42,039 bases of DNA from Candidatus Helarchaeota archaeon (GTDB taxonomy: Archaea > Asgardarchaeota > Lokiarchaeia > Helarchaeales > RDOG01), in contig JALGVI010000047.1 in the NCBI GenBank assembly GCA_029838215.1, positions 1 through 42,039 of the forward strand, given 5' to 3'. Of the stretch, positions 24,696 through 42,039 are shown piece by piece (positions within the stretch are counted from its first letter, which is position 1; each line of letters opens with the position of its first letter). Under the pieces are notes generated by a model. That model made no database searches. It saw only the letters and a list, made by a program, of their open reading frames with translations, and was not told where the DNA came from. The translations under genes were made by a program, and so were the position numbers.

Positions 24696-24919
24696 TGCCT
24701 TTGGGATGAGCCATCCTTTCGCTAATTTTCCATTGAACTTTCCAATTTTTTCCTAATTATTGGGATTAAATGAAAAATAAGCATTTTGTCGGCTAAGATT
24801 TCCGATTTTTTGAGAATTCGTTTTTAAATTCGAAATCTTTAAATAGTTGCGGCTGTGCTATAGTAATACAGTAACACGAAGAATGTGTTCAAAATTGAAA
24901 AAATGAAGGTGTTTCAAAA

Positions 24920-25288
24920 ATGGAAGATTTCGATAATGATTTGGACATGGATTTTGATGATGAAGCCCCCATCGTTTCCAAAACGCCAAAAGGTCCCGCG
25001 GCAAATGCAAAAAAGCCACATGAAGCCGAACTTGGAGACCCCTTAAACATTTACTTTAAAACCACAGTTGGTCCAGGCGAAAAAACTCAAAAATTAGTCG
25101 TAAATGAGAAAGCCCCGATATCAGAAGTGAAATACACCTGCGGACAAATCTTTTCACTTGATCCTCAGGATTTTCATTTTTCTGCCGGCGGCATTACGAT
25201 GGAAGAAACAAAAAACTTTGCTGATTATGGCGTAAAGAACGATGAAACCATCTTATTGATCCCCACCAGTACTGCCGGGGGTTTCTAA
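24920..25288 (+). CDS. Ubiquitin-like modifier with acidic/flexible N-terminal extension, C-terminus GG-F
   Basis: NIYFKT...ISEVK...GITMEETKNFADYGVKNDETILLI aligns with ubiquitin QIFVKT...IENVK...[24 protein letters not shown]; ends TAGGF; first gene of the E1/E2/JAMM/RING cluster. Confidence 0.88.
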   Translation: MEDFDNDLDMDFDDEAPIVSKTPKGPAANAKKPHEAELGDPLNIYFKTTVGPGEKTQKLVVNEKAPISEVKYTCGQIFSLDPQDFHFSAGGITMEETKNFADYGVKNDETILLIPTSTAGGF

Positions 25289-25314
25289 TTCCACTTTTTT
25301 TTTGAGGTGAAATC

Positions 25315-25488
25315 ATGGCAGTTAATACCGAACTCCCAAAGTTTGAAGATATCTGGACTCCCATCCACCCAACGGATGAATACAATAGCTTAAAAGAAGA
25401 ATGGGAAGAAGCTCAGAACTGGGTTCGGGATCTAATTGCCAAATGTGAAAAAAAATGTTTAAAAAATTCAGATATTCAAGCATCATGA
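25315..25488 (+). CDS. 57-aa orphan protein within the Ubl operon (below ORF-track cutoff)
   Basis: GAGGTGA RBS at 25304-25310; MAVNTELPKFEDIWTPIHPTDEYNSLKEEWEEAQNWVRDLIAKCEKKCLKNSDIQAS; fills the Ubl-E1 gap. Confidence 0.72.
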   Translation: MAVNTELPKFEDIWTPIHPTDEYNSLKEEWEEAQNWVRDLIAKCEKKCLKNSDIQAS

Positions 25489-25515
25489 TCATTAAAAATT
25501 CAGGCGTGAGTCAAG

Positions 25516-26718
25516 ATGAAGACAAAATCTAATTTCTTTTCCAAGTCCTTGAATAAAAAAGAACGGATTCTTTATGATCGACAATTCCGTTTGACCAATT
25601 GGGATCAAGAATTCATAAAAAAATCCAAAGTGCTCATCGTGGGCGTTGGTGGACTTGGTTGTGAGATTGCGAAGAATTTGGCCATGCTTGGAGTTAACAT
25701 GTATCTTTTAGATTTAGACACGATCGAACATACAAATCTAAATCGACAAGTTTTATTCTCACGTGCGTCGGTTGGACAACCAAAAGCACGGGTAGCAGCA
25801 AAATTCATCAAGAAACACATTAATCCAAACGTGCACGTGCGAGGCATTTACGATTCTCTTGAAAAAGTCAATCCCGTATTGTACGAAAAAGTCGATTTGG
25901 TCGTTTCAGGCTTGGATTCCATGAATGCTCGCCTCATCTTGAATAATATTTGCATTCAAAATGGTAAAATCCTTGTAGACGGTGGCACGAAAAATTACCA
26001 CGGACACGTTTATTCAGTCTTTCCAGGAAAAAACGCTTGCCTTGAATGTTATCCCGTTACTGTTCAAGATGACAATGACATGGATGCATGTACCGTTGTA
26101 GGCGAACCTCGTAAGCGAAATCATTGTGCCTTAAAAGCCATGATGAAATTCAAGGAACTCACGAATCGAGATCCAAATGTTGAAAAAATGCGAGAACTTC
26201 AATGGATATTGAAACAAGCCAATGCTTGGTGCAAGCAGTATAACTGGGAATTCTTTACATTAGATGAGATAATTCATTTAATTGATGTTCACGAACCAGC
26301 TATCATTACGATTAATAGCGTCATTGCAGCAATTCAAAGTCATGAAGTAGTCAAAATACTGCATTGGTTAAACGAACCAAACAATGAAAGAAATTTGGGT
26401 CCTCCATTAATGCAATATTTAATCTATAATGGAATGACGGGTAGTTTCTATGCACTGGAAAAGAAGAGAAATCCAGAATGCATGGTTTGTGGCCCCAACG
26501 CAAAGCGCATTCAATTGAAAATGTCCACGCATGAACCCATCCAAAATATCGTTAAAAAATTACAGAAGAAAGGTCTTCCCGTATCCGAATATTCAAGCGT
26601 TGCCAATACATCCCTTGAAATTCTTGATCTGCGGCAACGACTCGCGGATGCGGGAATCATGAATAATTCCCTATTATTTGTTGATGATATTAATGTTTTA
26701 ATAAAAATTAGAGGTTGA
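25516..26718 (+). CDS. E1 ubiquitin-like activating enzyme (UBA3/UBA2-like)
   Basis: YDRQ, GVGGLG, NLNRQ, GLDS..AR, DGGT, Zn CLEC/CMVC, catalytic ACTVVGEPRKRNHC with helical insert, PAIITINSVIAA, ~75-aa C-terminal domain. Confidence 0.93.
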   Translation: MKTKSNFFSKSLNKKERILYDRQFRLTNWDQEFIKKSKVLIVGVGGLGCEIAKNLAMLGVNMYLLDLDTIEHTNLNRQVLFSRASVGQPKARVAAKFIKKHINPNVHVRGIYDSLEKVNPVLYEKVDLVVSGLDSMNARLILNNICIQNGKILVDGGTKNYHGHVYSVFPGKNACLECYPVTVQDDNDMDACTVVGEPRKRNHCALKAMMKFKELTNRDPNVEKMRELQWILKQANAWCKQYNWEFFTLDEIIHLIDVHEPAIITINSVIAAIQSHEVVKILHWLNEPNNERNLGPPLMQYLIYNGMTGSFYALEKKRNPECMVCGPNAKRIQLKMSTHEPIQNIVKKLQKKGLPVSEYSSVANTSLEILDLRQRLADAGIMNNSLLFVDDINVLIKIRG

Positions 26719-26723
26719 TTAGC

Positions 26724-27002
26724 ATGGTTTATAAAAATAAGAGAAAAGTTTTGAACGAAATAGAACGCGCAGTTAAACTATTGTATGTAAATGGTCACAA
26801 GACGAAAGATTGGAAAAAGAACAGGAAAAACATCCAAGAATTCGTTGGAAATTACCTGCAACGTCATGACTTCAAACCGGAGAAAATCATCACGGAAATT
26901 CGAAAAGACGGCGTTGAAATTCACATCCACGATCTCAAGCGTGTTTCGCGACCCACTTTATTCAATCAATTGACTAAAGCAATTTTTGCTTCAACAACAT
27001 GA
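26724..27002 (+). CDS. Basic ~92-aa orphan protein within the Ubl operon
   Basis: GAGGT RBS overlapping the E1 stop; ATG 26724 (alternative TTG 26715). Confidence 0.72.
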   Translation: MVYKNKRKVLNEIERAVKLLYVNGHKTKDWKKNRKNIQEFVGNYLQRHDFKPEKIITEIRKDGVEIHIHDLKRVSRPTLFNQLTKAIFASTT

Positions 27003-27017
27003 AAGGAGTTGGTTTGA

Positions 27018-27548
27018 GTGAGCCTGAGAAGTAAACGAATCATTCAAGAATTTAACATGTTAAAAGAAATGTATCGAGCAAAAAAAATTCGACAGCTTAA
27101 ATCGGCAAATGGCAATAAAAAAAATATTGAACACTTGAAAATCCTCTTGGTCGGTCCAAAAAACACACCTTATCAAGGTGGTTTGTTTAAATTAGAAGTC
27201 CGCTTCCCCAAAAGCTATCCAATGGAGCCTCCATTCGTAAGATTACATACGCCAATTTGGCATCCAAATTTTTGGCCAGACCCAAAAGAATTTCCAGGAA
27301 GAAGGAACATTTGCTTGGACCTCGTAAATCCATCGAAAAAAGGAAATGGAGGAGGATGGACTCCCAGTAAATCCATTTCGACAGTAATCAACAGCATCTA
27401 TATGATGCTGGATACTAGAGGTGCATTCGTTAATCCCACGGACGTGTATAACAAAAAAGCAGGACTAGAACTCATGAAAAATCGTAAGGCTTTCGAAAAG
27501 AAAGCACGAACCATCACGAAAAAATACGCTCGGGAAAAGTGGAACTGA
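27018..27548 (+). CDS. E2 ubiquitin-conjugating enzyme
   Basis: KRIIQEF, GPKNTPYQGGLF, FPKSYPMEPP, WHPN, catalytic ICLD, WTPS. Confidence 0.96.
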   Translation: MSLRSKRIIQEFNMLKEMYRAKKIRQLKSANGNKKNIEHLKILLVGPKNTPYQGGLFKLEVRFPKSYPMEPPFVRLHTPIWHPNFWPDPKEFPGRRNICLDLVNPSKKGNGGGWTPSKSISTVINSIYMMLDTRGAFVNPTDVYNKKAGLELMKNRKAFEKKARTITKKYAREKWN

Positions 27549-27558
27549 GGTCATTTTA

Positions 27559-28278
27559 GTGACTAATAGCTCTTCAAATCCCACTGAAAGGAATACGGAA
27601 TTTATCAGCATTTCAAAAAAAGTCCTTAATGACATTTGTGCTTTTATTAGCTTCTTGGAAGAAGAACATCAAGTAAGAACCACGCCAAAGATACCCCAGA
27701 CGACAAAAAAAACGGAAATCCAAACCAGAGAAGTGAGTGATGTTTTCATTTCTTCTAAAGCATTGTTGAAACTTGCAACGCACGCCATCAAATATGCAAA
27801 TTATAAAAGAAACGTATGGGTTGAAGTTATTGGGTTATTGGCAGGAAACGAAAAGAATGGCAAGATGTTCATTAATGATGCATACCCAATGGGATCTGGT
27901 AACGCAATCTCCGTGAAAATTAAGAATCCCAGCAACTATTTAAAGGTATGGAACAAGATCCGAAAAAAAGGCGATTATATCGTGGGATGGTACCATTCTC
28001 ATCCTGGATACGATCTTTTCATGAGCATGGAAGACGTGAACACGCAACGTCGCTATCAAGCATTTTATGAAAAAAGCATTGCATTAGTATTTGACCCCAC
28101 ATTAGTGAATGGCAAGTCTTGGGGATTTAAAATCTTTAGATTGAAAAGCATAAACAAGACAGTATGGCATGAAGTATCGTGCACGGTCGAAGATGGATGG
28201 ACTCCAAAAATATTTCCAAATTTGCTCCGATTCATCGATTCCAATTCATTAAACGATTTTGTCGAACATGACAGGTGA
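27559..28278 (+). CDS. JAMM/MPN+ metalloprotease (Rpn11/CSN5-like)
   Basis: ALLKLATHA, EVIGLL, GWYHSHPGYDLFMSMEDV (H-x-H-x7-S-x2-D), LVFDP. Confidence 0.95.
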   Translation: MTNSSSNPTERNTEFISISKKVLNDICAFISFLEEEHQVRTTPKIPQTTKKTEIQTREVSDVFISSKALLKLATHAIKYANYKRNVWVEVIGLLAGNEKNGKMFINDAYPMGSGNAISVKIKNPSNYLKVWNKIRKKGDYIVGWYHSHPGYDLFMSMEDVNTQRRYQAFYEKSIALVFDPTLVNGKSWGFKIFRLKSINKTVWHEVSCTVEDGWTPKIFPNLLRFIDSNSLNDFVEHDR

Positions 28279-28304
28279 AAAATGCGCGTGAATGAAAATG
28301 AGAG

Positions 28305-29474
28305 GTGGAAATTATAAAGAGAATTCAGCTCAGCTATTTGATAATTTTGGGCATCGGAGTGGGCATTGGAATAGTCGACTCCATTTTACGCCTCTCAATC
28401 TTTCCATTTTTTTCTTGGTCGTTCATCGCCAGTTGGATTATCGGAACTATCTATTATATTCAAAAAATCAGGTTTAATCAACGTTTTAACGTTCGACTAA
28501 ATCAGGTATTTTTCATTTTTTGGCCAAACATGATGGGTACAGCCACGCTGGCATTTGGAAGCATTTCTGTTATCTTGAATGAGAGCATTTTAGGCGTGGT
28601 TCATTTCTCAATTTTCACGTTAATATTAGCATTACCATACCAGATAATTGGTTATATATTCATCTGGAAATCATTGGGACAATATCGCTTCGTTTTTTTT
28701 CAAGGTAAAGAAAAAAATGCTAAAGCCGTGGGTTTTTTCTTCTTGACATTTTTCATGATTATTTATTTCTCTATCGTGGCATTTGTAAGTCTTCTAGATC
28801 TTCTAGCTCTGATATTCGGTTTAGCAATGTTAATTTTATTTATTGAAAGAATCGTGTATCATTCAACTCATAGAGCCATTCTTGTCAATTCCTCTCCTAG
28901 ACGAGCACGTTCAAGAAATACGGCACGAGGTCTGGATATCCCTGCTCCAGCATTAAGCATTGCTGCAGAAGTCCCACCTGTAACATCTCGGACGCGACCC
29001 ACTCAAAGACAGAATACAAGAACTCCCAGGCGAGTCTCAACACGATCGAGACAAACAACACCTCGAAGGAATGAACACGGACATGCACGCAGACCTAGCG
29101 TGAATTCGCCTCTATCATCCAATAATAAAAATAAAAAAGACAAAAAAATCTTAGATCTTCTTCCAACAGGAATGAATATTGATATTAATGACTTCAAATG
29201 TCTATTCTGCTTCGAGATTCCCAATACGAACAATAGAAATCGTAAGATCGTTATTTGTCCCAAATGCAAGAGACCTGCACATCTGGACGAATGGAATGCT
29301 TGGAAAACAACCTCCCCAAGCTGTCCCCGTTGTAATGCAAAAATTAACGGTTCCCAAAAAATCGTGTCATCGCAAACATACGTAAAAGTTGTAAAGTATT
29401 TTTCGAAAAACAAAGAAAAATTCAAGAAATTGACCCGAATGGCAGTACTTCAATCAGTACAAAGAAGAAATTAA
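28305..29474 (+). CDS. Multi-pass membrane protein with C-terminal variant RING finger (putative E3 ligase)
   Basis: About 6 TM helices in the first ~185 aa, R/S/T/P-rich linker, then CLFC-x14-CPKC-x3-H-LD-E-WNAW-x6-CPRC at 29199-29333. Confidence 0.75.
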   Translation: MEIIKRIQLSYLIILGIGVGIGIVDSILRLSIFPFFSWSFIASWIIGTIYYIQKIRFNQRFNVRLNQVFFIFWPNMMGTATLAFGSISVILNESILGVVHFSIFTLILALPYQIIGYIFIWKSLGQYRFVFFQGKEKNAKAVGFFFLTFFMIIYFSIVAFVSLLDLLALIFGLAMLILFIERIVYHSTHRAILVNSSPRRARSRNTARGLDIPAPALSIAAEVPPVTSRTRPTQRQNTRTPRRVSTRSRQTTPRRNEHGHARRPSVNSPLSSNNKNKKDKKILDLLPTGMNIDINDFKCLFCFEIPNTNNRNRKIVICPKCKRPAHLDEWNAWKTTSPSCPRCNAKINGSQKIVSSQTYVKVVKYFSKNKEKFKKLTRMAVLQSVQRRN

Positions 29475-29499: not shown

Positions 29500-30036
29500 T
29501 TAAACTTCAATTTCATCGTACTTTTTCTTAAAAGTTTCGTAAGCCTCTTGATCATAAAGAACAAAAACTACTTTTTTCAAATGTGTCTTTTCATCTTGAA
29601 GAAACTTCACGGTTGAAGTCAGCATTATCTCAGCACAACGATCCAGCGGGAACCCAAAAATTCCTGTTGAAATAGCAGGGAATGCCAACGTTTTAATTCC
29701 ATTTTCCTCTGCACAAATTAGCGTGTTTATTGTTGCATTTTTGAGCTTAGCGTCTTCGTCACCCTCGCCCATTCGAGGTCCAACCGTATGAATCACGTAT
29801 TTTGCAGGTAAGTCACCAGCAGTTGTAATGACTGCGGACCCAACAGAAGTCCCTCGAGGATACTTGATCTTGCATTCTTCTTGAATTCGGGGACCACCCT
29901 TGCGACGTATGGCACCGGCCACACCTGCACCCAAAACTAAACGAGAATTCGCTGCATTCACGATAGCATCTAATTTCTGATCGGTAATGTCTCCTTTCTC
30001 GATTATGATTTCTGTCTGCCCAACTTGCAAAACCAT
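29500..30036 (-). CDS. Macrodomain ADP-ribose-binding / hydrolase protein
   Basis: GDIT, AIVNAAN, GAGVAGAI, VIHTVGP, AFPAISTGIFGFP; ATG 30036 is the likely start. Confidence 0.93.
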   Translation of the reverse strand: MVLQVGQTEIIIEKGDITDQKLDAIVNAANSRLVLGAGVAGAIRRKGGPRIQEECKIKYPRGTSVGSAVITTAGDLPAKYVIHTVGPRMGEGDEDAKLKNATINTLICAEENGIKTLAFPAISTGIFGFPLDRCAEIMLTSTVKFLQDEKTHLKKVVFVLYDQEAYETFKKKYDEIEV

Positions 30037-30233
30037 TGATAAAGACCTTCCTTCAAATGCATGTTTCAGGACGTGCGCCTTATGATTAAGAAATTCTGTC
30101 CTTATTACAATTAAGCATCGAGTTATAAAAATCGTACTGAATAGAAACAAATGAAAATTTATAATTCACGACTCGATAAAGTGAGAAGAATTCGTTCACG
30201 AAATGAGAAACAAGGAGCATCTCACGTAAAATT

Positions 30234-35748: not shown

Positions 35749-36068
35749 TTACACATCCTCAAGTAGAACTCAATGAGTGATGAGAATTAAGTTTTATGGT
35801 TTTTTAGTTCTATCTCGGTTTTTCTTTCATTTCGTCTCAATAAGCAACAAATAGGGGAGCAATCCAAAGCTAGACAAATCTATTATCAAATGATAAGATT
35901 TAAAATCGATAACGTGAAAATTCAAAAATTATAGAAGATTGTAAAGCGGCATTTGTATGAATTCAGATAGAATTACAATAAAAAGAATTCATAAAATTGC
36001 CCAAATTGATACCGTTCGCTAGTATTGCACTGACATATTGGTGCATAACAGGAGGCTTTTGCTTTAAA

Positions 36069-39000
36069 ATGTCCCGATTTTTGTTTAAAATTACGAAAGA
36101 AAAAAGATCATTTTTAATCTGCTTTTTTTTAATAACATTCTCCAGTTTTATTCCGATTTTAAGTTTAATGAACAATAAACTTCCACATTTTTATTCTAAA
36201 CCAATTGATTTACCGATAACGACATTAGAAATACCCCCGCTTTGGAGTTATCAAACTGGAGGTGATCTTCATTCCGTGGCGATCTCAAGTGATGGAGAAT
36301 TCATCGTGGCAGGGAGTGCTGATTCGGATGTATATTTGTTTAAAAAAGACAGCTCCGTGCCTCTATGGCATTATTCCACGGGAGCCAGTGCTTTTTCTGT
36401 CGCGATTTCAGATAATGGCATGTACTTGGTTGCAGGTAGCTATGACGATCGCGTCTATTTGTTTAACAGAACCAGTTCAACTCCAATGTGGAGTTATAAT
36501 ACAGGAGGCGATATCCGAAGCGTTGCCATCTCCGGGGATGGACAATATATCGTCGCTGGGAGTACTAACAACAAGGTCTACCTATTTAATCAGACAAGCT
36601 CTTCACCCATGTGGAGTTATACCACAGGGGACGATGTATATAGGGTCGACATATCTAAAAACGGTGATTATATCGTTGCAGGGAGTTGGGATTATAGACT
36701 TTACCTGTTTAATAGGACGAGTTCAACTCCAGAGTGGAGTTATTATACAAATGGTCGCGTCTATGCGGTCGCAATCTCTGCAGACAGCCAATACGTTGTT
36801 GGTGCAAGCATGGATTCAAACGACAGAACGTTCTTGTTCAATAGATCTTCTTCAATTCCACTTTGGATTTACTCTGGAACATCCGGCACCATTGACATTG
36901 ATATTTCTGACAATGGAGAATATATTTTTGCAGGCAATGGAGGTGGAGTTGTTTTACATCATCGTAATAGTTCAACTCCGTTGTGGACTTACCATTCCGG
37001 CTACGAAGTTGATTCTGTTGGAATTTCTGCAAATGGGCAATACATGTCTGCCGGTTATTTTAACGACCATATTCATATATTTGAAAAATCAAGCTCAACA
37101 CCAATTCGAGATTATGTAGCAGGGGATTTTGTTCGGGCTACGGACATTTCGGCAGATGGACTATATACAGTTGCAGGTAGCTACGATAATCGTGTTTATC
37201 TCCTTAGCCGCTGTGCAAAACCAGAATCAAATAATCCTAATGATTTTACTTCAAAGACAATCGGAAATGAAACGATCGATTGGATCCTCACCGATGAGTT
37301 TGGACCGGGCATGTATCGAGTATGGGGAGAAGATTCTTATGGAAATTCTTATGTCTGGAGAGATTGGACAAGTTGGGAAAATAATACCGTCCTACACGTT
37401 CCAATTAATCGAACATATTGGGGAACTCTAAATTTTACGATAGAATATAATAACTCCGTGGGTTTAATGGGTATCCCGGATTCAGTCTTTGTTACATTAG
37501 TTCCTACTGATCATGCACCAATTTGGCAATCTACGATAAGTGGAAATATTGAATCAGTTGATATTTCGGCAGATGGTTTTTACATTACGACCGGAGACAC
37601 AGACGGTGGTATAAAATTATTTAATAAAACAAGTTCGACAAACATGTGGTCCCATGTCGTAGCTTATGATGCAAAGTCGGTTGCAATTTCCTCCGATGGA
37701 GAATATATTATAGCGGGTCGTGATGATGACAAAGTATACCTGTATGATAAAGATAGCAAAACACCTGTTTGGTCATATACAACAGGAAGTGATGTTCGTG
37801 CTGTAGATATTTCATCAAATGGTGATTACATGGTTGCAGGTAGTTACGATCATTATGTCTATTTGTTTAATAAAACCAGTTCGACACCCATGTGGAGTTA
37901 TGATACAGGTTATAGCATAAGATATGAAGTCTCAATATCTGCAGATGGGCAATATATTGCAGCAGGCGGACTTAGTAATGATGTGATAGTATTCGAGAAA
38001 TCAAGTTCGACACCATTATGGAGTAAAGATGTAGGTCATGAAATCACAACAATAGCGATTTCTCAAGATGGAGAATATATTGCCGCTGGGGACAGTGCTG
38101 GTTACATATATTTGTTTAATAGAACTAATTCCACTCCGATTTGGAGTCGAGATATGGGACAATTCGTCAAATCTGTTGCAATATCGAAAAACGGAACCTT
38201 TATTGCCGCAGTTGCAGATGTTCCGCATTCATTATGTTTATTTCATAGAGATAATTCAACTCCGATTTGGAATCAAAGTTTAAGTTTGCAAGCGACATCA
38301 GTGTCAATTTCATCGGATGGAAAATACATCATTGCTTCTTGCACGGACAAATTCATATATCTATGTAATCAAAGCATGTGTCTATGGAGGTCTTATTTTG
38401 ATGGTTTTGATGAATACGTAAAAATTTCAGCCGATGGACAATATATTGCAGCAGGAGGAGACGATAATAAAATTAAATTATTTGATCTCTTTAGCAGACC
38501 GGAATCTAATTCACCGACAGATATGACAACGCATGAAATCGGTAATGAAACAATAAATTGGAATCTAATAGATGAACTGGAACCAGGACAGTATAGAGTC
38601 TGGGCAGAATATAATGGTGAAACGCCTTACATCTGGCAGGATTGGACATATTGGGAAAATAATACGGATCTCAGGGTTCCGATCAATCGCTCTATAACAG
38701 GAGTTTTCAATTATACAATAGAATACAACAACAGTCGTGGGATTCTTGGAACTCCTGATTCAGTTTTAGTAACCGTGATTCATGCACCAATTTGGAACCA
38801 TACAGTAGATGATGATGTTCTTCAAGTAAAGATATCAGGTGACGGACAATATGTAGTCGCCGGAACTGAATCTCCCGGAGGAGAAAAACTTCATTTATTT
38901 AAATCATTCAATTCAACACCATTATGGAGCAATGCAACGGGAAATACGGTAAGAAGTGTTTCTATTTCAGATGATGGAGAATATATTGCAGCCACTAACG

Positions 39001-42000
39001 ACGATGGAAACCTTTATCTCTTCCAGAAGGATAACCCAAATTATATTTGGCGTTATTCCATGGGAACCACGGGTAGATCTGTCGCAATTTCGTCCGATGG
39101 GTTCTACATTACCGTTGGTACAGACTCGCCGGGAGACATCTATCTTTTTAATAGGACAAATTCAAACCCGATGTGGAAATATTCGGGCATATCCACGGTC
39201 TTTCAGGTTGCTATTTCAGAAGATGGAGAATACATTGCGGCAGGGAGCACGGATAATAAAATTTATTTGTTTAATAAATCGAGTTCTACTCCAATGTGGG
39301 AATTCGATACTGGTAACGATGTAAGATCAGTCGCAGTAACGTCAACAGGTCAATACATCGTGGGAGGTGGTTCAAACCATATCTTGTATTTTTTTAATAG
39401 GACAAGTTCAACACCAGAATGGAGTTCAAATACAGGAGATATCATTAGATCCGTGAGCATTTCCGACCAAGGAAATAAAATTGCCGTAGGAAGTGGGTCA
39501 AAAGTTTATTTGTATAATCGGACAAGTTCCATTTCCGAGTGGAATCGTGAAACTGCAGGTCTCGTAGATTCAGTTGATATTACAGGTGATGGTGACTTCA
39601 TCGCTGCGGCTGGTGGAGACGATGTATATCATTTTAATGTATCAAATTCCACCCCTAATTGGGCATATTCAACAAATGGAAAAGTATATTCTGTCTCAAT
39701 ATCCTCGGACGGAAAATTAATTGCCGCAGGAAGTCTTGATAACAATGTATATGTCTTTCACAGGGATAGAGGTCCTGTTTCAAATAGTCCTTGTGATATC
39801 ACTTCAAATCTGACAGATACCGATAAGATTGGATGGATTTTGGCGGATCCTATTGGTCCGGGTCAATTTAGAGTCTGGGCAAATGATACAAATAACGTCT
39901 CTTATGTGTGGTCAGATTGGCAATCCTGGGATAATCTTACTTCATTAAACGTGAATATTAATCGAACTCATTGCGGCACGTTTAATTATACAATCGAATT
40001 CAACGATAGTAACGGATATCAAGGCATTCCTGATACAGTAATTGTGACTTTAGTTACTCCGCCTCCTTCTTCAAATCACCCAATGGACTTTACAGCCTCA
40101 ACCATTCTTTCGTATACTTTAAACTGGACTCTTTCTGACATGTTTGGAACAGGTTTCTACCGTGTATGGTGTAATGTTTCTAATGATGAATATTACATTT
40201 GGCAAGATTGGGATACTTGGCAAAATAATACGAATCTGATGATACCGTTGAACAATAGTGTCGAAGGAACTTTTAATTACACCATAGAATATAACAATAG
40301 CGTTGGACTCTTTGGAGCTCCTGACACGATCATTGTCAGAGTTGTATTACAAGATCATCATCCTTTATGGACTTATCAAGCCGGTAATGACATCAGATCA
40401 ATTGCTATTTCGAAGGACAGTAATTATATCGTGGCTGGGAGTAAGGATTGCAAGGTATATTTATTCCAACGAGCCCGACCAGAACCTTTATGGTCTTTCG
40501 AAACGGGTGGTACAGTCCAAGCAGTTGCCATTTCATCCGACGGTCAATATATTGTGGCAGGAGGAGTCGATTATAAGATCCGTGTTTTTAACAGGAGTTC
40601 ATCAATGCCTTTGTGGAATTATACCGCAGGAGATGTCATAAATTCGATAGCAATTTCAGATGATGGATTTTATTTCGTCGTTGGGAGCGACGATAACAAG
40701 GTTTATCTCTTCAACAGGACTAATTCGAATCCAATGTGGACTTTCAACCCGTCAGGAGACATTAAATCTGTTGCAATATCTGCAAATGGAGAATATTTTG
40801 CTGCAGGATGCACTAATGACAGGGTATATTTATTTAATAGAACAAAAATGTCATTAATTTGGCAATACGATACATCAAATGACGTGACTTCTGTCTCAAT
40901 GTCATCTGATGGGGAATATATTACAGCTTGGAGTGGCGGTGACATATATTTATTCAATAAGTCAAGTTCGACGCCAGAATGGATTTATTATAGTGGTTAT
41001 TTTTCAGGGTCAACTAAGATTTCAGGAGACGGACAATATATTGCCGCAAGCGTGACACCATATTTGCTTTTGTTTAATAGAAATAGTTCAACCCCTATTT
41101 GGAGTTATAGGCGATCCGGCGATGGAGGAACTGTAAATTCGATTGCGATCTCGCAGACGGGTCAGTATATAGCTGCTGCAAGATCATCCGATAAACTCCA
41201 TTTCCACAACAGGACAAACATCGGTCCACGTTGGAGGTATTTAACAGTAGACGAATTTGAAGTTGTTTCAATTTCTGCTGATGGTCAATACATCGCTGCA
41301 GGAAGTTATGATGATAAGATCTATCTCTTTCATAGAACTAAACAAGCCCCTTTTTCAAATCATCCGAATGATATCTTCATCAGGACAGATAGCACGGAAA
41401 AAATACATTGGATTTTAACTGAACACGAAGATAGTCCGGACATGTTCCGTGTTTGGCTAAATGATACGGGTGATAATTATTACGTCTGGAAAAATTGGAC
41501 TAATTGGCAGAATAACACGGATCTTAACATCGATATCAACATGACGGCGGTTGGAGTTTTCAATTATACGATAGAATACAATAATAGTGAAGGCGTATTT
41601 GGAATTCCTGATACAGTATTTGTCACCATTGATGATACAGAGCCCTCCATTGTTTTGGATGGTCCCATCAATAACACCGTGCTTCAGAAACCCGCACTCA
41701 TCGAACTGACAATCACGGACGATAATCTCAACCCTTCAACTGTAGAGTGGCGGGCAAACGTAACCCAAACAAGCTGGACCACGTCCTTTACGGGCTCACA
41801 TGACATCGACCTGTCAAGCTTTGCCAGCGACCAGACCGTTCAATTCTGGATTCAAGCCGATGATACGGTTGGCAACCACCAAATTATAACCGTAATCTTC
41901 ACGTTCGATGATACGGATCCCTCCATTGTTTTGGACGGTCCCGTCAATAACACCGTGCTTCAGAAACCCGCACTCATCGAACTGACAATCTCTGACGCCA

Positions 42001-42039
42001 ATCTCAACTCTTCGGCTCTAGAGTGGCGGGCAAATGTCA
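36069..42039 (+). CDS. Giant secreted/anchored protein: four beta-propellers plus Ig-like repeats, runs off the right edge; absent from ORF track
   Basis: Read codon by codon: no stop from ATG 36069 to 42039 (1990 codons); N-terminal basic + hydrophobic signal; 32 WD40-like repeats (PxWxYxTGxxVxxVAISxDGxYIxAGSxDxxVYLF); AGGAGG at 36050. Confidence 0.92.
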   Translation, partial: MSRFLFKITKEKRSFLICFFLITFSSFIPILSLMNNKLPHFYSKPIDLPITTLEIPPLWSYQTGGDLHSVAISSDGEFIVAGSADSDVYLFKKDSSVPLWHYSTGASAFSVAISDNGMYLVAGSYDDRVYLFNRTSSTPMWSYNTGGDIRSVAISGDGQYIVAGSTNNKVYLFNQTSSSPMWSYTTGDDVYRVDISKNGDYIVAGSWDYRLYLFNRTSSTPEWSYYTNGRVYAVAISADSQYVVGASMDSNDRTFLFNRSSSIPLWIYSGTSGTIDIDISDNGEYIFAGNGGGVVLHHRNSSTPLWTYHSGYEVDSVGISANGQYMSAGYFNDHIHIFEKSSSTPIRDYVAGDFVRATDISADGLYTVAGSYDNRVYLLSRCAKPESNNPNDFTSKTIGNETIDWILTDEFGPGMYRVWGEDSYGNSYVWRDWTSWENNTVLHVPINRTYWGTLNFTIEYNNSVGLMGIPDSVFVTLVPTDHAPIWQSTISGNIESVDISADGFYITTGDTDGGIKLFNKTSSTNMWSHVVAYDAKSVAISSDGEYIIAGRDDDKVYLYDKDSKTPVWSYTTGSDVRAVDISSNGDYMVAGSYDHYVYLFNKTSSTPMWSYDTGYSIRYEVSISADGQYIAAGGLSNDVIVFEKSSSTPLWSKDVGHEITTIAISQDGEYIAAGDSAGYIYLFNRTNSTPIWSRDMGQFVKSVAISKNGTFIAAVADVPHSLCLFHRDNSTPIWNQSLSLQATSVSISSDGKYIIASCTDKFIYLCNQSMCLWRSYFDGFDEYVKISADGQYIAAGGDDNKIKLFDLFSRPESNSPTDMTTHEIGNETINWNLIDELEPGQYRVWAEYNGETPYIWQDWTYWENNTDLRVPINRSITGVFNYTIEYNNSRGILGTPDSVLVTVIHAPIWNHTVDDDVLQVKISGDGQYVVAGTESPGGEKLHLFKSFNSTPLWSNATGNTVRSVSISDDGEYIAATNDDGNLYLFQKDNPNYIWRYSMGTTGRSVAISSDGFYITVGTDSPGDIYLFNRTNSNPMWKYSGISTVFQVAISEDGEYIAAGSTDNKIYLFNKSSSTPMWEFDTGNDVRSVAVTSTGQYIVGGGSNHILYFFNRTSSTPEWSSNTGDIIRSVSISDQGNKIAVGSGSKVYLYNRTSSISEWNRETAGLVDSVDITGDGDFIAAAGGDDVYHFNVSNSTPNWAYSTNGKVYSVSISSDGKLIAAGSLDNNVYVFHRDRGPVSNSPCDITSNLTDTDKIGWILADPIGPGQFRVWANDTNNVSYVWSDWQSWDNLTSLNVNINRTHCGTFNYTIEFNDSNGYQGIPDTVIVTLVTPPPSSNHPMDFTASTILSYTLNWTLSDMFGTGFYRVWCNVSNDEYYIWQDWDTWQNNTNLMIPLNNSVEGTFNYTIEYNNSVGLFGAPDTIIVRVVLQDHHPLWTYQAGNDIRSIAISKDSNYIVAGSKDCKVYLFQRARPEPLWSFETGGTVQAVAISSDGQYIVAGGVDYKIRVFNRSSSMPLWNYTAGDVINSIAISDDGFYFVVGSDDNKVYLFNRTNSNPMWTFNPSGDIKSVAISANGEYFAAGCTNDRVYLFNRTKMSLIWQYDTSNDVTSVSMSSDGEYITAWSGGDIYLFNKSSSTPEWIYYSGYFSGSTKISGDGQYIAASVTPYLLLFNRNSSTPIWSYRRSGDGGTVNSIAISQTGQYIAAARSSDKLHFHNRTNIGPRWRYLTVDEFEVVSISADGQYIAAGSYDDKIYLFHRTKQAPFSNHPNDIFIRTDSTEKIHWILTEHEDSPDMFRVWLNDTGDNYYVWKNWTNWQNNTDLNIDINMTAVGVFNYTIEYNNSEGVFGIPDTVFVTIDDTEPSIVLDGPINNTVLQKPALIELTITDDNLNPSTVEWRANVTQTSWTTSFTGSHDIDLSSFASDQTVQFWIQADDTVGNHQIITVIFTFDDTDPSIVLDGPVNNTVLQKPALIELTISDANLNSSALEWRANV
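41631..42039 (+). repeat. Intragenic tandem repeat, period 276 nt (92-aa Ig-like module)
   Basis: Units start at 41631 and 41907; first 84 nt differ at 4 positions. Confidence 0.88.

Follow-up and report, generated by a model that had tools for sequence, protein, structure and literature searches.

A probable ubiquitin-like conjugation operon with a membrane RING protein, conserved as five genes in Asgard archaea

The genes considered in this work lie on the forward strand of a 42,039-nucleotide (nt) stretch of DNA from a Candidatus Helarchaeota archaeon (contig JALGVI010000047.1), the whole of which is referred to below as the window. A sequence-only reading of this DNA had described, at positions 24920-29474, seven co-oriented and tightly packed genes of a ubiquitin-like conjugation pathway, most of them preceded by Shine-Dalgarno (SD)-like motifs. 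The open reading frame (ORF) list of the window contains seven co-oriented ORFs at these same coordinates, and six of these have an SD-like GGTG/GAGG motif 5-14 nt before their start, any such motif of the last gene being weak at best, so that this description of the layout is confirmed. The genes are as follows (aa, amino acids; TM, transmembrane):

24920-25288, + strand: ubiquitin-like modifier (Ubl), 122 aa
25315-25488, + strand: orf57, 57 aa
25516-26718, + strand: activating enzyme (E1), 400 aa
26715 (TTG start, 95 aa) or 26724 (ATG start, 92 aa) to 27002, + strand: orf95
27018-27548, + strand: conjugating enzyme (E2), 176 aa
27559-28278, + strand: JAMM protein, 239 aa
28305-29474, + strand: TM-RING protein, 389 aa

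The JGI gene callers predicted these seven genes on two metagenome contigs as well, both with 99.9% identity to the window. In the locus names used below, G stands for a genome, C for a contig and L for a fetched locus; G000 is the source genome of the window, G001 is a genome of the same family and G005 one of the same order.

The E1 protein matches the Pfam family ThiF (2.5e-54) and its best solved relative, over residues 33-343, is UBA3, the E1 subunit for NEDD8 (3e-41). Its catalytic-cysteine loop A-C-T-V-V-G-E-P-R (residues 191-199, nt 26086-26112) aligns with P-M-C-T-I-A-S-M-P-R of UBA3, with Cys192 at the catalytic position, and the protein also contains a Rossmann GxGxxG motif (residues 43-49) and two zinc-binding CxxC pairs (175-178 and 322-325); its C-terminal region may form a ubiquitin-fold domain. 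The E2 protein matches UQ_con of Pfam (1e-27), its best solved relatives are UBE2T (8e-23) and Ubc13, and its H82-P83-N84 motif and catalytic Cys99 (in N-I-C-L-D) are invariant among 17 orthologs. The JAMM protein matches the Pfam family JAB (6e-14), its nearest solved proteins are PSMD14/Rpn11 (3e-17) and the Rpn11-like protein of Caldiarchaeum (6fjv, 3.5e-17), and its MPN+ active site is intact (Glu89 and H-S-H-x7-S-x2-D at residues 146-159). The match of the Ubl to Pfam ubiquitin (PF00240, 1.3e-3) falls below the curated cut-off; the profile of the Ubl family matches ubiquitin best, and also the putative archaeal ubiquitins 8hm1-3 (~1e-6) and the Caldiarchaeum Ubl 6fnn. Based on the alignment of its orthologs, the Ubl consists of an acidic disordered N-terminal tail followed by a beta-grasp domain.

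The last gene encodes the only ligase (E3) candidate of the operon. In the source databases the proteins of its family are labelled hypothetical, and the AlphaFold2 (AF2) model of the window protein (mean confidence, pLDDT, 72.6) contains six predicted TM helices (residues 2-29, 33-60, 68-87, 103-125, 139-161 and 166-186) followed by a linker and a C-terminal finger, as listed below:

28305-28865, + strand: TM domain, residues 1-187, six helices, predicted N-in/C-in
28866-29159, + strand: disordered basic linker, residues 188-285
29187-29348, + strand: divergent RING finger, residues 295-348
29349-29474, + strand: C-terminal helices and stop codon, residues 349-389

The Lys/Arg counts of the loops are +2, +4, +5 and many on one side of the TM domain and +1, 0 and 0 on the other; because of this charge distribution and the AF2 model, the protein is predicted to have both of its ends inside the cell, with the RING finger in the cytosol. 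The cytosolic loops TM2/3 and TM4/5 are conserved in the family alignments. The linker (pLDDT <50) contains 18 Arg, 11 Ser, 10 Thr and 10 Pro among its 98 residues; its length and composition are kept among the orthologs and its sequence is not, and it is predicted to be a tether joining the membrane domain to the RING. In the AF2 model the linker is followed by a compact domain (residues ~290-348) and by two helices (356-368 and 370-388), which, by analogy with the RINGs of RNF8, Rad18 and TRIM proteins, may dimerise. All of the fold matches of the C-terminal domain are to RING/U-box ligases (3lrq with Z 8.7, RING1B, Rad18, TRIM, RNF8 and CHIP), and by hhalign the family profile is related, with a probability of 97% (E 9e-11), to a soluble RING protein of 79 aa encoded elsewhere in this genome. 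The ligand positions are C299, C302, C318, C321, H326, E329, C340 and C343, the sixth thus being Glu, which aligns with the second His of the soluble RING of this genome, and the pattern in the family is C-x2-C ... C-x2-C-x4-H-x2-E ... C-x2-C. No variation is seen at W333, and C299 is almost always followed by Ile (Leu in the window); both of these residues correspond to E2-contact positions of known RINGs. The membrane RING protein is the probable E3 of the operon.

The order Ubl-E1-E2-JAMM-TM-RING is found in all 18 of the fetched loci of relatives. In a scan of Asgard genomes with one genome per species, 137 loci were found and 80 kept, and 73 of these 80 have at least the order E1-E2-JAMM-TM-RING; of the remaining seven, five are cut by contig ends and two (L081 and L111) are without the upstream genes. 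The gene order is kept far beyond chance, and the operon mostly gives one match per genome. A relative of the TM-RING protein is present in 34 of 41 relatives, and the TM domain in 78 of the 301 genomes of the phylum, mostly within the class of the window and with weaker matches in a few other families. An exhaustive profile search of 1.84 billion representative proteins yielded only 55 clusters, in which the TM domain is N-terminal in the full-length members and the RING motif is present in 35 of the 37 family representatives of at least 330 aa; no long or different architecture of this protein, and no relative of eukaryotic size or likeness, was found among these representatives. A word-indexed protein search made with the TM-RING alignment was dominated by the low-complexity linker and gave 13 matches among 8000 scored candidates. 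The kept loci are on contigs from Asgard metagenome-assembled genomes named 'Promethearchaeota/-ia' and by other Asgard names. One complete Asgard operon (L061, DATKTW010000176.1) is filed under a 'Candidatus Nanopelagicaceae bacterium' assembly and is probably a misbinned Asgard contig.

Some variation was seen among these loci. In 44 of the 80 there are extra genes on the 5' side of the operon (e.g. L014:408-3676), none of which is present in the window; they include another Ubl of the Ala-Gly type, in which the acidic tail is longer, an opposite-strand protein of 262 aa that begins with two TM helices and ends in a Ubl domain lacking a terminal Gly, and a winged helix-turn-helix (wHTH) protein. 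At L027:4140-4696 the E2 gene is in two ORFs (85 and 94 aa), due to a frameshift or an assembly error.

The C-terminus of the Ubl requires separate consideration. In the window, this protein ends in S-T-A-G followed by G-F (nt 25268-25285). Among 66 Ubl orthologs adjoining an E1, 40 stop exactly at ...S-T-A-G and the other 26 add 1-4 unrelated residues (the closest relative, L033, ends in S-T-A-G-V-I), whereas not a single one ends in Gly-Gly; the family consensus is ...L-L-I-P-A-S-T-A-G and the A-G-G-F of the window is the exception. The alignment of the Ubl profile with ubiquitin stops at L-L-I, facing residues 68-70 of ubiquitin, and if it is extended without gaps then P-A-S-T-A-G would face L-R-L-R-G-G. 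Because most orthologs end at STAG and none in Gly-Gly, and in view of this alignment, the tail of the window Ubl is probably to be read as an Ala-Gly end followed by two extra residues (STAG-GF) rather than as a Gly-Gly end followed by one (GG-F). It would thus probably be incorrect to suppose, as had been proposed earlier, that the JAMM protein trims GG-F, since the terminal Gly of the family is the G of STAG. Further, as most of the orthologs need no trimming and yet all of them retain the JAMM gene, we infer that the conserved role of the JAMM protein is deconjugation. The acidic N-terminal extension of the Ubl is conserved in the orthologs and within it K21-T22-P23 (in I-V-S-K-T-P, nt 24971-24988) is invariant. 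A partner protein with terminal K-T-P motifs was sought across the genome of the window and only spurious-looking ORFs were obtained; one of the extra 5' genes at L014 encodes a 367-aa coiled-coil protein that has K-T-P motifs at both of its ends.

The source genome also contains a canonical ubiquitin/ESCRT cluster (G000:C112:18155-22919; L119:3155-7919). This cluster encodes a 358-aa E1, a 158-aa E2, an 86-aa ubiquitin ending in Gly-Gly plus a six-residue propeptide, the 79-aa soluble RING protein mentioned above, a coiled-coil protein and Vps4, and two ESCRT-III (Snf7-family) genes are located a few kb from it (C112:25694-26769). The identity between the window operon and this cluster is 29% for the E1s and 33% for the E2s. 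By these comparisons the window operon represents a second, paralogous cascade, unlinked to ESCRT. We consider it rather likely that this locus represents one copy of an operon of five genes, conserved in Asgard archaea, for conjugation of a ubiquitin-like protein and separate from the Gly-Gly ubiquitin/ESCRT cluster, and that the two small ORFs in it are passengers. The earlier proposal of a self-contained Ubl pathway, with a matched JAMM protein and a membrane RING, is supported by the enzyme families and by the kept gene order.

Two other loci of the same genome contain genes of related types. At G000:C161:8729-10619 (L117:3730-5620) the gene for yet another E2, the third of this genome (172 aa, with 44% identity to the E2 of the operon), immediately precedes that of a JAMM protein of 482 aa whose C-terminal part is a long coiled coil. 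The second is a locus of the sulfur-carrier/SAMP type (G000:C62:3845-10822; L115), in which the genes, named by eye from their translations, are a 272-aa ThiF/MoeB-like E1, an aldehyde:ferredoxin oxidoreductase-like gene, a 106-aa beta-grasp-like protein ending in Gly-Gly-Gly and a PP-loop protein resembling a tRNA-thiolation enzyme; a paralog of orf57, described below, is ~1 kb beyond.

Several observations weigh against the five-gene conjugation operon as read here, and most of them concern the ligase. The RING finger scores below the Pfam threshold in every member of the family (for the window protein, Prok-RING_1, PF14446: 3e-3, 17.9 bits against a gathering threshold of 29.1 bits), and only one of 18 family members matches Prok-RING_1 at E <=0.01. 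A Glu is present at a zinc-ligand position, by which zinc site I may be altered, and the usual 'linchpin' position after the last Cys is not Arg or Lys. The TM domain is without a recognisable fold relative, as Foldseek against the PDB returned matches to the RING only and VIA-align returned generic helical bundles. Lastly, the processing of the Ubl after STAG is deduced from the orthologs and in this organism the cut could also fall after the second Gly. If the RING protein were non-catalytic, it would serve as an anchor, a receptor, a regulator or a preferred substrate and the E2 would tag targets by itself, as in some Ubl systems which are E3-independent. The Glu, the missing linchpin and the sub-threshold Pfam scores are in accordance with this possibility, as are the Lys/Arg-rich cytosolic loops and linker. 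The prediction of a complex between E2 and RING is also not strong: the score was 0.49 against 0.00 for the best control, with one of three runs at 0.00, a partner pLDDT of at least 68 and a contact agreement of at least 16%. In calibration, 58 of 80 solved complexes attained this mark, as did 2 of 110 mismatched pairs, with passes at <=0.60 counted as weak; this pass thus lends weak support to an E2-RING pairing and may reflect likeness to the common solved E2-RING complexes. However, the finger is homologous to the RINGs of the small RING finger protein (srfp) type, for which E3 activity is known from Caldiarchaeum (PMC5654768); the family shows little or no variation at the E2-contact positions, and the gene is always inherited together with that of the E2. 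Hence, we think that a non-catalytic role for this protein is unlikely.

Different considerations apply to orf57 and orf95, which had been described as two extra uncharacterised components of the pathway. Conserved gene order had been set earlier as a test of the proposed pathway; it holds for the TM-RING gene, which is kept in every one of the 18 fetched loci, but not for these two ORFs, for which no match was found in any of ~100 related operons. They are lacking even in the closest relative, L033 (RING protein 45% identical), where the gaps at the two positions are 98 nt and 312 nt (the latter ORF-free) and show no DNA similarity to the window; in related operons the Ubl-E1 gap is typically ~80 nt and the E1-E2 gap 50-110 nt. 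Judged from their sequences, both are probably real small genes. The chance of such an open frame is ~0.015 for orf57 and ~0.001 for orf95, and their codon-usage log-likelihood ratios (0.157 and 0.086) are reached by 0.02% and 0.7%, respectively, of spurious overlapping ORFs, both values being typical of real genes; orf57 has a strong SD motif (GAGGTGA). In L031 and L032, which are 99.9% identical to the window, neither ORF has a single-nucleotide difference. No family for either was found in Pfam, NCBIfam, PADLOC or PHROGs, their paralogs gave nothing meaningful in PADLOC or PHROGs, and a feature search of the ESM Atlas gave no usable match; in a search of 5.8 billion proteins, orf95 matched itself only. 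In the AF2 model (pLDDT 72.6) orf95 is a small protein of alpha-alpha-beta-beta arrangement and its family is restricted to the taxonomic family of the host; the best fold match (2ia7, Z 6.9, root-mean-square deviation (rmsd) 3.9, 85 residues aligned) is within noise and no fold was assigned.

The homologues of these ORFs were found in other genomic settings. A 60-aa paralog of orf57 (43% identical; G000:C62:10643-10822) lies 3' of a thiolase gene and two further homologues are present in G005. For orf95 there is a 90-aa paralog after a methyltransferase gene (G000:C164:37090-37359, pairwise E 9e-8) and a homologue in G001 (C2:134343, E 4e-16), 18 kb away from the operon of that genome and between a major facilitator superfamily (MFS) transporter and an unrelated gene. 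Taken together, the genes that adjoin the homologues of the two orphans are those for a thiolase, an MFS transporter, a methyltransferase and also a wHTH protein. The orf95 paralog starts 15 nt after a 685-aa N-P-P-Y protein (locus G000:C164:35018-37362, L116:2019-4363), which was read by eye from its translation as a type IIG-like N6-adenine methyltransferase, which is a hint that the orf95 family may travel with mobile or defence genes. At L092:4279-5058 an opposite-strand gene for a 259-aa leucine-rich repeat protein is located between E1 and E2, so that this junction tolerates insertions elsewhere.

Because orf57 and orf95 are absent from the other operons and their homologues are in unrelated contexts, they are read here as inserted members of small lineage-restricted families, most likely lineage-specific insertions at the Ubl-E1 and E1-E2 gaps that are passengers rather than subunits of the pathway. 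As the orphans are not conserved, the conserved unit is therefore one of five genes and not seven. It should be noted on the other side that they lie inside the operon and have good SD motifs, and a pathway role peculiar to this lineage is possible.

These results bear directly on the earlier interpretation, in which orf57 and orf95 are dedicated subunits of a seven-component pathway that is a precursor or analogue of quality control by endoplasmic-reticulum-associated degradation (ERAD). The co-orientation of all ORFs and the SD motifs and coding-like statistics of the two small ones are what this interpretation would lead one to expect, and the plan of the last protein, with a multi-span membrane domain at the N-terminus and, after it, a cytosolic RING which would recruit a UBC-type E2, is similar to that of Hrd1, gp78, TRC8/RNF139 and RNF145. 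One Hrd1 chain (9uav_B) is also among the helical matches of the TM domain (Z 8.0, rmsd 4.1, 118 aligned). However, this Z is equalled by many unrelated helical proteins and is within the noise for helical bundles, and the family profile, compared with all PDB sequences, gave no match for the TM domain beyond the low-complexity linker and no match to Hrd1. The membrane domain is thus without detectable sequence homology or convincing structural homology to Hrd1-type ligases and has six helices as opposed to eight, and the finger is C4-H-E-C2 rather than RING-H2 (C3H2C3). It differs as well from the RING-CH of MARCH/Doa10 proteins (C4HC3, N-terminal) in being C-terminal, in its third and fourth Cys forming C-x2-C and in its Glu as the sixth ligand. 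No genes for Derlin, Sel1L or Usa1 are linked to the operon, and no Cdc48 gene is found in or beside it, the rest of the genome not having been searched for these. With the orphans missing from every other operon examined, including that of the closest relative, and with their homologues adjoining unrelated genes, we regard the seven-component ERAD-type pathway as improbable; the ERAD comparison has no specific support and the likeness to Hrd1 is architectural only.

For the five-gene operon, a course of events can be proposed, all steps of which are derived from homology. The Rpn11-like JAMM protein would remove the GF tail of the Ubl, exposing the Ala-Gly C-terminus; the UBA3-like E1 would then adenylate the tag and form a thioester with it at Cys192, from which the tag would move to Cys99 of the E2. 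The charged E2 would be recruited by the cytosolic RING of the six-helix protein, held on its flexible basic tether of ~100 residues, and lysines at the cytoplasmic face of the membrane would be tagged, the candidates being membrane proteins, the ligase itself and, for the formation of chains, the lysine in the K-T-P motif of the tag. The JAMM protein would also reverse the modification. More tentatively, and with less conviction than for the operon itself, it may be suggested that the Ala-Gly operon is a pre-eukaryotic system for tagging at the membrane surface, whose polytopic RING ligase might mark proteins of the bilayer for extraction and degradation or for sorting.

It is instructive to compare this operon with the systems already described. 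The operon of Caldiarchaeum subterraneum encodes Ub, an E1-like protein, an E2-like protein, srfp and Rpn11 (PMC5654768, PMC6043591). The window operon is similar to it in the five types of components and their arrangement as an operon, in an E1 with a catalytic-Cys insert, in an E2 with the HPN motif, in an Rpn11-like JAMM protein, of a type able to trim a C-terminal propeptide as well as to deconjugate, and in a RING homologous to the srfp type. However, the RING of the window operon is not a small soluble protein but forms the C-terminal part of a protein with six TM helices, from which a long disordered tether separates it, and it has Glu as the sixth zinc ligand; the tag has an Ala-Gly and not a Gly-Gly end and an acidic N-terminal tail with K-T-P; and the JAMM gene is within the operon and co-oriented. 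In the ESCRT-linked cluster of Asgard archaea, a Gly-Gly ubiquitin, E1, E2 and a soluble RING E3 are encoded beside Vps4/ESCRT-III, and the published Asgard reconstitution used this type of soluble RING system (PMC9192718; bioRxiv 10.1101/2023.07.25.550441). The enzyme families and the phylum are common to both, whereas the window operon is away from ESCRT genes and has its own JAMM protein and a membrane RING.

Resemblances to two eukaryotic pathways were also noted. The nearest relative of the E1 is UBA3 of the NEDD8 pathway, and in the UFM1 pathway the removal of two residues exposes a single terminal Gly and ligation takes place at a membrane. However, the E1 of the window is a single chain with no gene for an APPBP1-like partner, the E2 is nearest to UBE2T/Ubc13 and not to UBC12 or UFC1, and the Ubl profile matches ubiquitin itself best. 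These likenesses to NEDD8 and UFM1 are resemblances and should not be interpreted as membership.

Two further explanations for the operon are very improbable. If it were an anti-virus defence module of the bacterial Bil or CBASS-Cap2/Cap3 kind, tagging the proteins of invaders, then the same four enzyme types (Ubl, E1, E2 and JAB) would be expected, and the E1-E2 and BilD models of PADLOC do match the E1 adenylation domain (best 1.8e-14), with JAB models matching weakly; however, these matches extend over no more than the generic adenylation core and do not approach the strength of that to UBA3, the E2, Ubl and RING have no match to a defence model, and the locus is conserved, class-wide and usually single-copy, in contrast to patchy defence islands. 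Likewise, that the Ala-Gly tag is joined to a membrane lipid headgroup, as for Atg8, with the membrane RING protein presenting the lipid, would suit the single conserved terminal Gly and a sole ligase candidate which is integral to the membrane and in which the loops at the membrane interface are conserved, but it is hardly to be expected, as the E1 and E2 are of UBA3 and UBC/HPN type and not of Atg7 and Atg3 type, known RING E3s direct transfer to lysines and nothing in the analysis points to a lipid.

Additional features in and around the operon are as follows. A pattern scan revealed two TATA-like boxes upstream of the Ubl gene:

24823-24845, + strand: TATA-like boxes TTTAAATT and TTTAAATA, 75-97 nt before the Ubl start

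These are a candidate archaeal promoter of the operon. Bacterial-type promoter and terminator sites were no more frequent than in shuffled sequence, and this class of sites is inapplicable to an archaeon. Separated by 25 nt from the end of the RING gene is a convergent gene for a macro-domain protein (PF01661, 6e-39; 29500-30150, - strand); this neighbour is kept in the close relative L034 and was not found at the other loci. Further downstream, an ORF of more than 2014 aa (35997-42038, + strand) continues past the end of the window.

The ubiquitin genes of Asgard archaea have served as an argument for an origin of ubiquitylation before the eukaryotic cell, and membrane-embedded ubiquitin-type ligases have so far been treated as a speciality of eukaryotes. 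The archaeal systems described earlier contain small soluble RING ligases and Gly-Gly ubiquitins (PMC5654768, PMC9192718, bioRxiv 10.1101/2023.07.25.550441), and in the literature searched, which covered the key Asgard papers in part, no archaeal ubiquitin operon was found to be described with a RING embedded in the membrane. The operon described here is distinctive in that its sole ligase candidate is an integral membrane protein, that its tag ends in Ala-Gly and that its RING protein, annotated as 'hypothetical', falls below the Pfam thresholds. For its reconstitution, due to the correction concerning the two orphans, five proteins would be needed and not seven. As a second, lineage-wide cascade, it would offer a concrete and testable candidate for how ubiquitin tagging at membranes originated, and if the suggestion of a pre-eukaryotic membrane tagging system is true, then membrane ubiquitin-type ligases would have arisen in Asgard archaea, beside the ESCRT-linked Gly-Gly pathway.

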